DNA from: Malacoraja senta
Taxonomy: Eukaryota
DNA length: 64,000 nt
Direction of reading: 5' to 3'
Assembly (NCBI GenBank): GCA_038087875.1
Contig: CM075990.1
Coordinates: 18,230,001-18,294,000 of the forward strand
Shown in pieces: positions 21,746 to 22,266 of the stretch. Positions within the stretch are counted from its first letter, which is position 1; each line of letters begins with the position of its first letter. A program made the translations under genes and the position numbers. The notes under the pieces are model-generated. The model saw only the letters and a list, made by a program, of their open reading frames with translations. It had not been told where the DNA came from and searched no databases.

Positions 21746-22266
21746 CAGTGGGGTCTGCTGGGGGGGGGGGCCTATCCGTGGTTTGGGTTATGATTATCAT
21801 GGGGTGAGTTGTGCTTTGCCTATCCTGTCTGACCATCCTTTGGCTCCCTCTCTGGTCCTCCCTGTCTCCCTATCCTAGTTTTAGAGTGTCCCTCACTTCA
21901 ATCCTATGATTATTCGAGCCCACTCTATTTTGGTTTGTACTGTTATTCTCCATCATCCCCCCTTTGGTTTGGGTTTCACCCTCCTGACTCCATTTGAATC
22001 TTTTCTGTGGCCTGCTCCTTCTGCGGTTTTGATTTGCCTGAGTGATGAAGCCCGTGTCACTGTAAAGGTTAGGTTGTGATTTATCGGACAGTGGGACAAC
22101 ATGCCCTCTGGTGCTTATTGATCTCCCCCTGGGGATTCCTTTTCACTGTGTACTGTCACTTGGTATTTGGCCCACGGTTTCATCACCCTTGTCCAAATCT
22201 ATTTGCCTTACACTTGCCCTTCCATAGATTTGTGGGAGTCAGTCAGGATCCACCCTAGGTTTGAGT

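Follow-up and report, generated by a model that had tools for sequence, protein, structure and literature searches.

Within a 64,000-nucleotide stretch of telomeric DNA carrying TTAGGG on its plus strand (the window; contig C14, 18230001-18294000, of a 1.94-Gb genome), a 7-nt telomere-complementary motif, GGTTAGG at 22067-22073 (minus strand; CCUAACC in the RNA), is with near certainty the fixed start of the copies of a retroelement. The explanation that we find best, and probably correct, is that the motif is the 3′-UTR start site of an endonuclease-bearing (EN+) Penelope-like element (PLE), in which a long-range RNA helix likely binds ORF2, the reverse transcriptase (RT) of the element, and presents CCUAACC.

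The retroelement occupies the minus strand of the window and consists of two reading frames. ORF2 (22267..24546, minus, 759 aa) encodes an RT followed, C-terminally, by a GIY-YIG endonuclease, and an identical protein is found at 14800-17079. ORF1 (16998..18791, minus, 597 aa stop to stop) weakly resembles GDSL/SGNH in its C-terminal portion, with an E of 0.0038 that falls short of the Pfam cut-off. A full unit of about 7.47 kb (14600..22066, minus) begins at the motif on telomeric repeats, and a partial second unit (22067-27145, minus) ends in TTAGGG repeats. ORF1 is open in the first copy and broken into two frames in the second (24465-25493 and 25378-26256); the split across 24465-26256 may be a frameshift or an assembly error. 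In Pfam searches ORF2 matches GIY-YIG above and RVT_1 below the cut-off, and the ADKG, LDD, Y..YIG, R, E and N residues and both C and H positions are conserved in 31-34 of 34 aligned relatives. RT and C-terminal GIY-YIG share a single ORF with DKG and CCHH motifs, as in EN+ PLEs; tandem and partial-tandem copies form pseudo-LTRs with an optional tail, and a hammerhead motif, predicted from sequence, falls within the repeated part. A Neptune-type CX2-5CxxC linker lies between RT and EN at ORF2 residues 629-637, aligned in only 3-5 of the 34 sequences. By the definitions of EN+ and Neptune-clade PLEs in the portion of PMC8557442 available, these ORF2 motifs would place the element among EN+ PLEs of Neptune type. 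Protein matches to ORF2 at E 1e-50 or better number 2277, the named ones being fishes; relatives at 55-94% protein identity were compared as proteins alone. A PDB profile search with ORF2 returned no match, and scans of viral contigs found nothing. A near-identical element occurs in at least nine other organisms and in fish metagenomes, with about a quarter of sampled words in common. Elsewhere in the window, a G-rich run and an N gap (41325-41990) separate the telomeric array from a satellite block, and C14 extends about 200 kb further, its arrays lying in either orientation and its last 10 kb lacking TTAGGG; for these reasons its scaffolding here may be unreliable.

Copies of the element typically begin at the motif. 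In the copy at 14600 the junction with telomeric repeats falls precisely on GGTTAGG. Exact-pattern searches of the genome placed the 28-mer adjoining the motif at 212 sites, 45 in a form that joins TTAGGG repeats exactly at the motif and 167 in a tail-bearing pattern (one unrelated). Diverged copies behave similarly: among 20 loci at 70-97% DNA identity, picked by ORF2 protein match and including two duplicate pairs, 13 matched copies start at 22067-22070, while seven start further in and none reaches the tail. When distinct starts not joined to the element itself are counted, 43 of 59 map to 22056-22070, a proportion raised by the use of motif patterns to retrieve many of the loci. Loose contig ends fall at 22067, in telomeric DNA or not, in five other organisms (X3, X14, X17, X15, X23). 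The copies in the terminal array of C17 face the chromosome end (L159), and the element is attached to the G-rich telomeric strand through a reverse-complement repeat. Some starts at 22067 lie in unique DNA where no more than one or two bases are in register (L176, L177, L179, L184, X23).

The RNA running from one predicted hammerhead cut to the next contains 12 perfect telomere matches of at least 7 nt, the motif included; the other 11 are 7-10 nt and mostly longer. Nine of them lie in G/T-rich tandem repeats of about 600 bp (19302..21743), which are situated between hammerhead and fold as part of the RNA tail, and have a predicted openness of 0.97-0.99. No telomere-joined start was found at these nine in the loci at hand, which sample them more thinly than the motif. 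At a 10-nt match beside the hammerhead (18991..19000, minus) no start was seen either: in each of 30 loci examined, out of 69 places, the sequence on its left belongs to the element. Since no start was seen at 11 other telomere matches in the loci sampled and some starts have little or no in-register flank, complementarity alone is insufficient to pick the start. The same two observations favour a choice made by RNA context and protein, as reported for the anole Poseidon protein in vitro in the accessible part of PMC11167929. The about 600-bp repeats are themselves made of 111-bp subrepeats with telomere-like words, G/T-rich on the plus strand.

Nested inverted repeats surround the motif in the 3′ UTR, just past the ORF2 stop of the second copy, and every arm named in the original prediction was recovered there. 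The arms read in the sequence are those of a closing helix, S1, formed by CTGACTCC (21984-21991) and GGAGTCAG (22235-22242), with an inner extension AATCT/AGATT (21997-22001/22226-22230); two arm pairs of a core helix, GTGATGAA/TTCATCAC (22042-22049/22179-22186) and CCGTG/CACGG (22052-22056/22173-22177); and stem 3, CACTGT/ACAGTG (22058-22063/22088-22093), for which a second CACTGT (22144-22149) is an alternative partner. A further helix, GATTTG/CAAATC (22031-22036/22194-22199), had been missed. With it, the core long-range helix is predicted to pair 22031-36/22194-99, 22040-49/22179-88 and 22052-56/22173-77 (minus). The nested chain of perfect helices, each at least 5 bp, totals 38 bp. Of 1000 dinucleotide shuffles, 2 attain this length when the loop is held on the motif and 41 when the loop is free; 3 of 85 further windows of the element also attain it, as do 44 of 297 control windows from the genome (15%). 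The MFE z-score is -0.76 for 21975-22266 and -1.2 to -2.1 for three tighter cuts. With such counts and modest z-scores, the nested structure stands moderately, not dramatically, above chance.

Folding predictions, made without pseudoknots, differ markedly among the stems. On the RNA strand S1 has a pair probability of about 1.0 locally and of 0.68 and 0.23 in wider contexts, the last once 330 more bases of ORF2 are included. The core helix scores 0.75-1.0 locally, and its 22042-56/22173-86 portion 0.74-1.0 across four contexts. The stem set proposed for the minus strand therefore stands for its outer helices, which are robustly predicted, but not for stem 3: at a pair probability of only 0.16-0.19 it would seldom close the 24-nt loop attributed to it, and the alternative pairing through the second CACTGT reaches just 0.05-0.06. 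The claim that CCUAACC is single-stranded on the RNA strand agrees with prediction, at an unpaired probability of 0.81-0.98 whichever inner fold forms. This openness is not special on the C/A-rich RNA strand, where values of 0.79-0.99 are predicted for ten other telomere matches. For the plus strand the predicted folding energy is similar, and the motif is mostly paired. We regard the core long-range helix as probably functional and place less confidence in a function for inner stem 3. Other candidates for the region were discarded. The pairing through 22144-22149 is not a conserved switch, with its probability of 0.06 and a base, 22148, that differs in all eight other runs, though G-U compatible; the inner hairpins at 22097-22120 are broken in older copies; inspection of the RNA strand found no box D downstream of a box-C-like word, as a box C/D snoRNA would have; and no hammerhead core is present within 21984-22242. 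An Rfam scan of 18700-27300 gave only three chance mir-207 matches and did not match telomerase RNA.

The region is under sequence constraint, which we assessed in eight runs (contigs) of related organisms that are kin to each other, the tail-bearing ones a few percent diverged. Among the changes listed, from which 48 less supported rows are omitted, 34 of the 259 positions in 21984-22242 differ, divided as 3 of 58 in S1 and the core helix vs 31 of 201 elsewhere (one-sided Fisher p 0.028); adding stem 3 lowers p to 0.006, and the stem set originally proposed, with the AATCT extension and without 22031-36, gives p 0.15. These values are only indicative, because the fold was known when the stems were picked and the runs are kin to one another. 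No pair-breaking change occurs in S1 or the core helix among the changes listed for the eight organisms. The single S1 change keeps its pairing as U-G, and the two in the core helix still pair on the RNA strand; two of the three would break pairs on the opposite strand. The AATCT extension of S1 is broken twice in X23. Compensatory changes are absent from S1, the core helix and stem 3 among those listed for the eight close-relative runs, and the sole double compensatory change seen (22103/22114 in X21) belongs to an inner hairpin that other lineages break. Stem 3 (22058-22093) is invariant in young relatives among the changes listed, and of 22 older copies, in which the partner is unseen, 9 carry another letter at its terminal base, 22088. 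Older subfamilies display one arm only, since the tail is missing from their copies: the S1 and 22194-99 arms carry no shared change, a change at 22179 is compatible with pairing, and C>T at 22184, present in 11 of 21, would disrupt a core pair if its unseen partner stayed the same. No older or divergent tail-bearing copies were found in genome pattern searches and flanks.

The longest invariant stretch raises the possibility that the start is set by primary sequence, with ORF2 recognising 22040-22096 and the long-range stems being incidental or keeping the region accessible. These 57 nt are unchanged among the changes listed, a run as long as which arises in 71 of 20000 permutations, and this strongest of the signals spans paired and unpaired bases alike. 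The absence of covariation, the modest z-scores and the weakness of stem 3 point the same way. However, the distant arms at 22173-22199 and 22235-22242 are conserved too and change only to G-U-compatible letters, loop bases 22076, 22078 and 22085 differ in older subfamilies that share the same start base, and minimal tandem units retain both S1 arms. We consider recognition by primary sequence rather unlikely next to a presenting long-range helix.

Deletion derivatives delimit the domain further. The original prediction held that the fold is retained in every derivative, which is true for 39 of the 40 motif-bearing copies in the window; the exception is the copy at 14600, which starts at the motif and has no downstream arms. 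From 43401 to 53962 (minus) the window carries 32 tandem copies of a 330-bp unit, 21940-22269, comprising the whole fold and little else, and from 53613 to 64000 (minus) it carries 1561-bp deletion units in which 21793-23034 is joined to 26387-26706, the fold being kept and the joint lying at the hammerhead cut. Tandem units of 330 bp (21940-22269), 333 bp (21939-22271, C3792) and 338 bp (organism B, 22270 back to 21933) all have intact S1 arms. Six larger deletion units retain the fold; the larger units begin on the left at 21760-21883, end on the right at 22350 or beyond, and keep both S1 arms in every case. Natural deletion derivatives bound a candidate cis domain of 335 nt and lend separate support to selection on the fold. 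A difference of 3 bases at the joint separates the 330-bp unit from the 333-bp unit, and the two may have a single origin. The C3792 array (L278, L298; C3792:19348 onward) has at least 55 units of 333 bp and starts on TTAGGG repeats exactly at the motif.

Such arrays could also arise if the inverted repeats acted in DNA, as a cDNA hairpin, an endonuclease site or a recombination hot spot, the short arrays then being DNA-level duplications. The identity of 31 of 31 330-bp units in the window, the imperfect microhomology beside the 330-bp joint and the similar folding energy of the plus strand would fit this account. It is at odds with the mostly paired state of the plus-strand motif, with the start of the C3792 array on telomeric repeats at the motif, and with the pattern of substitution: of the 5 changes that fall in S1, the core helix and the alternative stem, 4 disrupt pairing on the plus strand and preserve it on the minus strand. 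We think it very improbable that the repeats act in this way, and return to a fold acting in RNA. A more speculative extension, which we find doubtful although conceivable, is that the 335-nt domain is a self-sufficient telomerase-like RNA that would be bound by ORF2, prime a chromosome end at CCUAACC and, by end-to-end jumps, lay down 330-338-bp telomeric repeats. If so, the C3792 array would be a product of such synthesis, and the element would stand, in a living vertebrate, midway between retroelement and telomerase and offer a way for complex telomeric repeats to arise. The C3792 array is accounted for equally well by a single jump and subsequent amplification at the DNA level.

A type I hammerhead-like motif with helices I-III lies 3.1 kb downstream of the motif used (18914..18976, minus; predicted cut between 18922 and 18921), its core and stems being recognised from sequence and fold; it has no Rfam match. 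The second copy has a corresponding motif at 26379-26441 (minus), with a predicted cut between 26387 and 26386. Genomic junctions fall on the predicted cut. Six independent junctions, with donor sites 22398, 22837, 22857, 22957, 23034 and 24155, enter there with base precision, and a further one departs from the other side of the cut, to 21883. The simplest reading is that the hammerhead cleaves in vivo and that RT then jumps between templates, to and from the cut ends; cleavage followed by such jumps would account for the regeneration of the tail and downstream arms. In vivo cleavage by PLE hammerheads is called unresolved in the part of a 2020 review available (PMC7761336). Circular templates for PLE retrotransposition are proposed in the accessible text of PMC4209133; such templates are conceivable for the element here.

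At the opposite end of the copies, TTAGGG repeats follow 28 of 72 distinct truncated ends. Comparison with empty sites was informative for 2 of 6 insertions: L176, in unique DNA, has TTAGGG after its truncated end and two paralogous empty sites (L307, L138) have none, and the empty site for L181 (L258) has only a degenerate repeat seed. Added repeats begin in several registers. Of 12 directly repeat-capped truncated ends, 10 share at least one in-register base, a number that local alignment can inflate; such sharing is a reported signature of telomerase-made interstitial repeats in the text available from PMC2246262. The genome contains a telomerase RNA gene with an intact template (L314 1501-1967, minus; C8:12633527-12633993; Rfam RF00024, 173 bits). 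A TERT domain search of the genome gave zero matches, as did its controls.

These ends bear on the analogy with a telomerase template drawn in the original prediction. Priming at CCUAACC stands, but reiteration does not: the motif is 7 nt long and is read through in every copy examined. A telomerase template has about 1.5 repeats, an alignment region and a 5′ boundary, and the motif falls short of this. Because the sequence after it is copied without a boundary, we regard the motif as a priming site and not a bounded telomerase template. Were ORF2 nonetheless to copy CCUAACC repeatedly, making TTAGGG repeats on both sides of an insertion, this would explain repeats that follow truncated ends in non-telomeric DNA and are missing or degenerate at the empty sites. 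The motif offers a one-base realignment overlap for this, the added repeats start in several registers and the host has its own telomerase RNA, all of which make repeat synthesis by ORF2 highly improbable. As a 7-nt, read-through motif is ill suited to templating repeats, it is likelier that telomerase supplied them.

Telomerase could also act before the element, by leaving, on a telomere or a break, a GGTTAG 3′ end that the element RNA captures through 6-bp pairing, with the fold playing a minor part. The telomerase RNA gene and the in-register bases at capped ends are consistent with this hand-off. Many interstitial starts also have TAG or TTAG directly left of the motif, and abortive copies of 12-30 nt lie only one or two repeats from the next start (L260, L259). 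As a full account we judge it improbable, for it does not explain why longer and more open telomere matches in the RNA are unused or why some starts have no in-register flank (L177, X23). As a source of primers, hand-off is compatible with the best explanation, a 3′-UTR start site presented by a long-range helix.

That explanation suggests the following cycle. The hammerhead would cut tandem transcripts into 7.47-kb units, each with a 3′ end 3.1 kb beyond the motif. ORF2 would be bound by the unit RNA through the 3′-UTR domain, which would hold CCUAACC at the active site. The G-rich 3′ end of a DNA (a chromosome end, nick or break, often with bases in TTAGGG register) would then prime at the motif, and RT would read straight through it toward the 5′ end. 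RT may stop, and TTAGGG repeats would then cap the end, host telomerase being the simplest agent; alternatively, it may jump to an RNA 3′ end and copy the tail, which would rebuild the downstream arms and form a tandem unit.

Among retroelement enzymes, Penelope-like RTs are the most closely related to telomerase, and to our knowledge start-site choice by PLE RTs on their RNA has been addressed in a single in vitro study. The components proposed here are known singly. EN-deficient telomeric PLEs comprise Athena, Coprina and Terminons, and telomere priming is described in the parts of PMC8557442 and PMC6431247 available. As far as those descriptions go, the present element resembles them in an RNA with a reverse-complement telomeric stretch exposed by a fold (predicted here), attachment to G-rich telomeric DNA, telomere-capped truncated ends, a hammerhead and a GDSL-type accessory ORF (the GDSL match being weak here). 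Unlike them, it has a C-terminal GIY-YIG with its motif residues in the RT ORF, and it uses a single 7-mer in a separate 3′-UTR fold, 3.1 kb from the hammerhead, and not the telomere match adjoining the hammerhead, which has no start in the 30 loci examined of 69. Its host also has TTAGGG telomeres and a vertebrate telomerase RNA, and interstitial insertions occur.

A second precedent is Poseidon of Anolis carolinensis (PAc), whose reverse transcription initiates internally, in an AC-rich stem loop, in vitro (PMC11167929, from the portion available, for this comparison). Both are EN+ PLEs with an internal start in an AC-rich loop and an optional tail beyond it. PAc starts on non-homologous AT-rich targets, whereas the start here is telomere-complementary; the PAc start is near its hammerhead with a tail of 30-40 bp, whereas the tail here measures about 3.1 kb; and RNA reads did not reveal the hammerhead cut of PAc, whereas genomic junctions here fall on the predicted cut. 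With Neptune-clade EN+ PLEs, as the accessible part of PMC8557442 presents them, the element shares the DKG motif, the RT, a CX4CxxC linker, a CCHH-type GIY-YIG, a tandem arrangement and a bias to simple repeats; in contrast, the bias here is to TTAGGG through an RNA motif, and there is a separate upstream ORF. The hammerhead has a full helix III, compared with the minimal metazoan form in the available text of PMC4209133. As in the telomerase RNA template domain and the DRT2/DRT10 ncRNAs (PMC12632851, PMC12039810, in the parts available), a structured RNA would supply a related RT with a short stretch for templating or priming, with tandem products. Unlike those RNAs, it has no template boundary, an alignment region of only one base and no Rfam match, and it is the element's own mRNA. 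What appears new is that a vertebrate EN+ element joins telomere priming of the Athena/Terminon type to internal initiation of the Poseidon type. The combination of the two in an EN+ vertebrate element, with a priming site 3.1 kb from the hammerhead, was not found in the literature searched, the main texts of mostly open papers, and an earlier description is possible.

The family is young and intact, and gives a base-exact telomere-complementary start together with unused telomere matches that serve as internal negative controls. It makes testable the use by a PLE RT of a folded RNA to present a telomeric priming site, the addition of repeats, and hammerhead cutting in vivo. It also hints that endonuclease-bearing elements might lengthen vertebrate telomeres beside telomerase. 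EN+ elements are in addition one possible source of short interstitial telomeric repeats: short old interstitial insertions (L176, L177, L179, L181, L184 and others) end in 1-4 TTAGGG repeats that paralogous empty sites lack, and insertions of this kind may have seeded short interstitial telomeric sequences.

More distant relatives offer further observations. Families with ORF2 at 45-60% protein identity retain CCTAAC-type stretches after ORF2, which suggests a wider telomere-seeking clade; by eye, their UTRs have no likeness to that at 21984-22242. The telomere-like stretches follow ORF2 in L031, L032/L033, L034 and L162/L163, and L032 has them inside ORF1 as well; contig L032 stops on CCTAACC. 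Minimal hammerhead-like cores are present in L031, L032 and L162/L163. A second, abundant PLE family (L145-L154), with about 35% aa identity in the endonuclease region, carries a hammerhead-like motif of the minimal kind, and its ORF is not directly followed by a telomeric stretch. Metagenome and GTDB loci yield PLE families at 28-60% identity, and the PLE relatives in GTDB bacterial assemblies (L161-L174) are apparently contaminating animal DNA.
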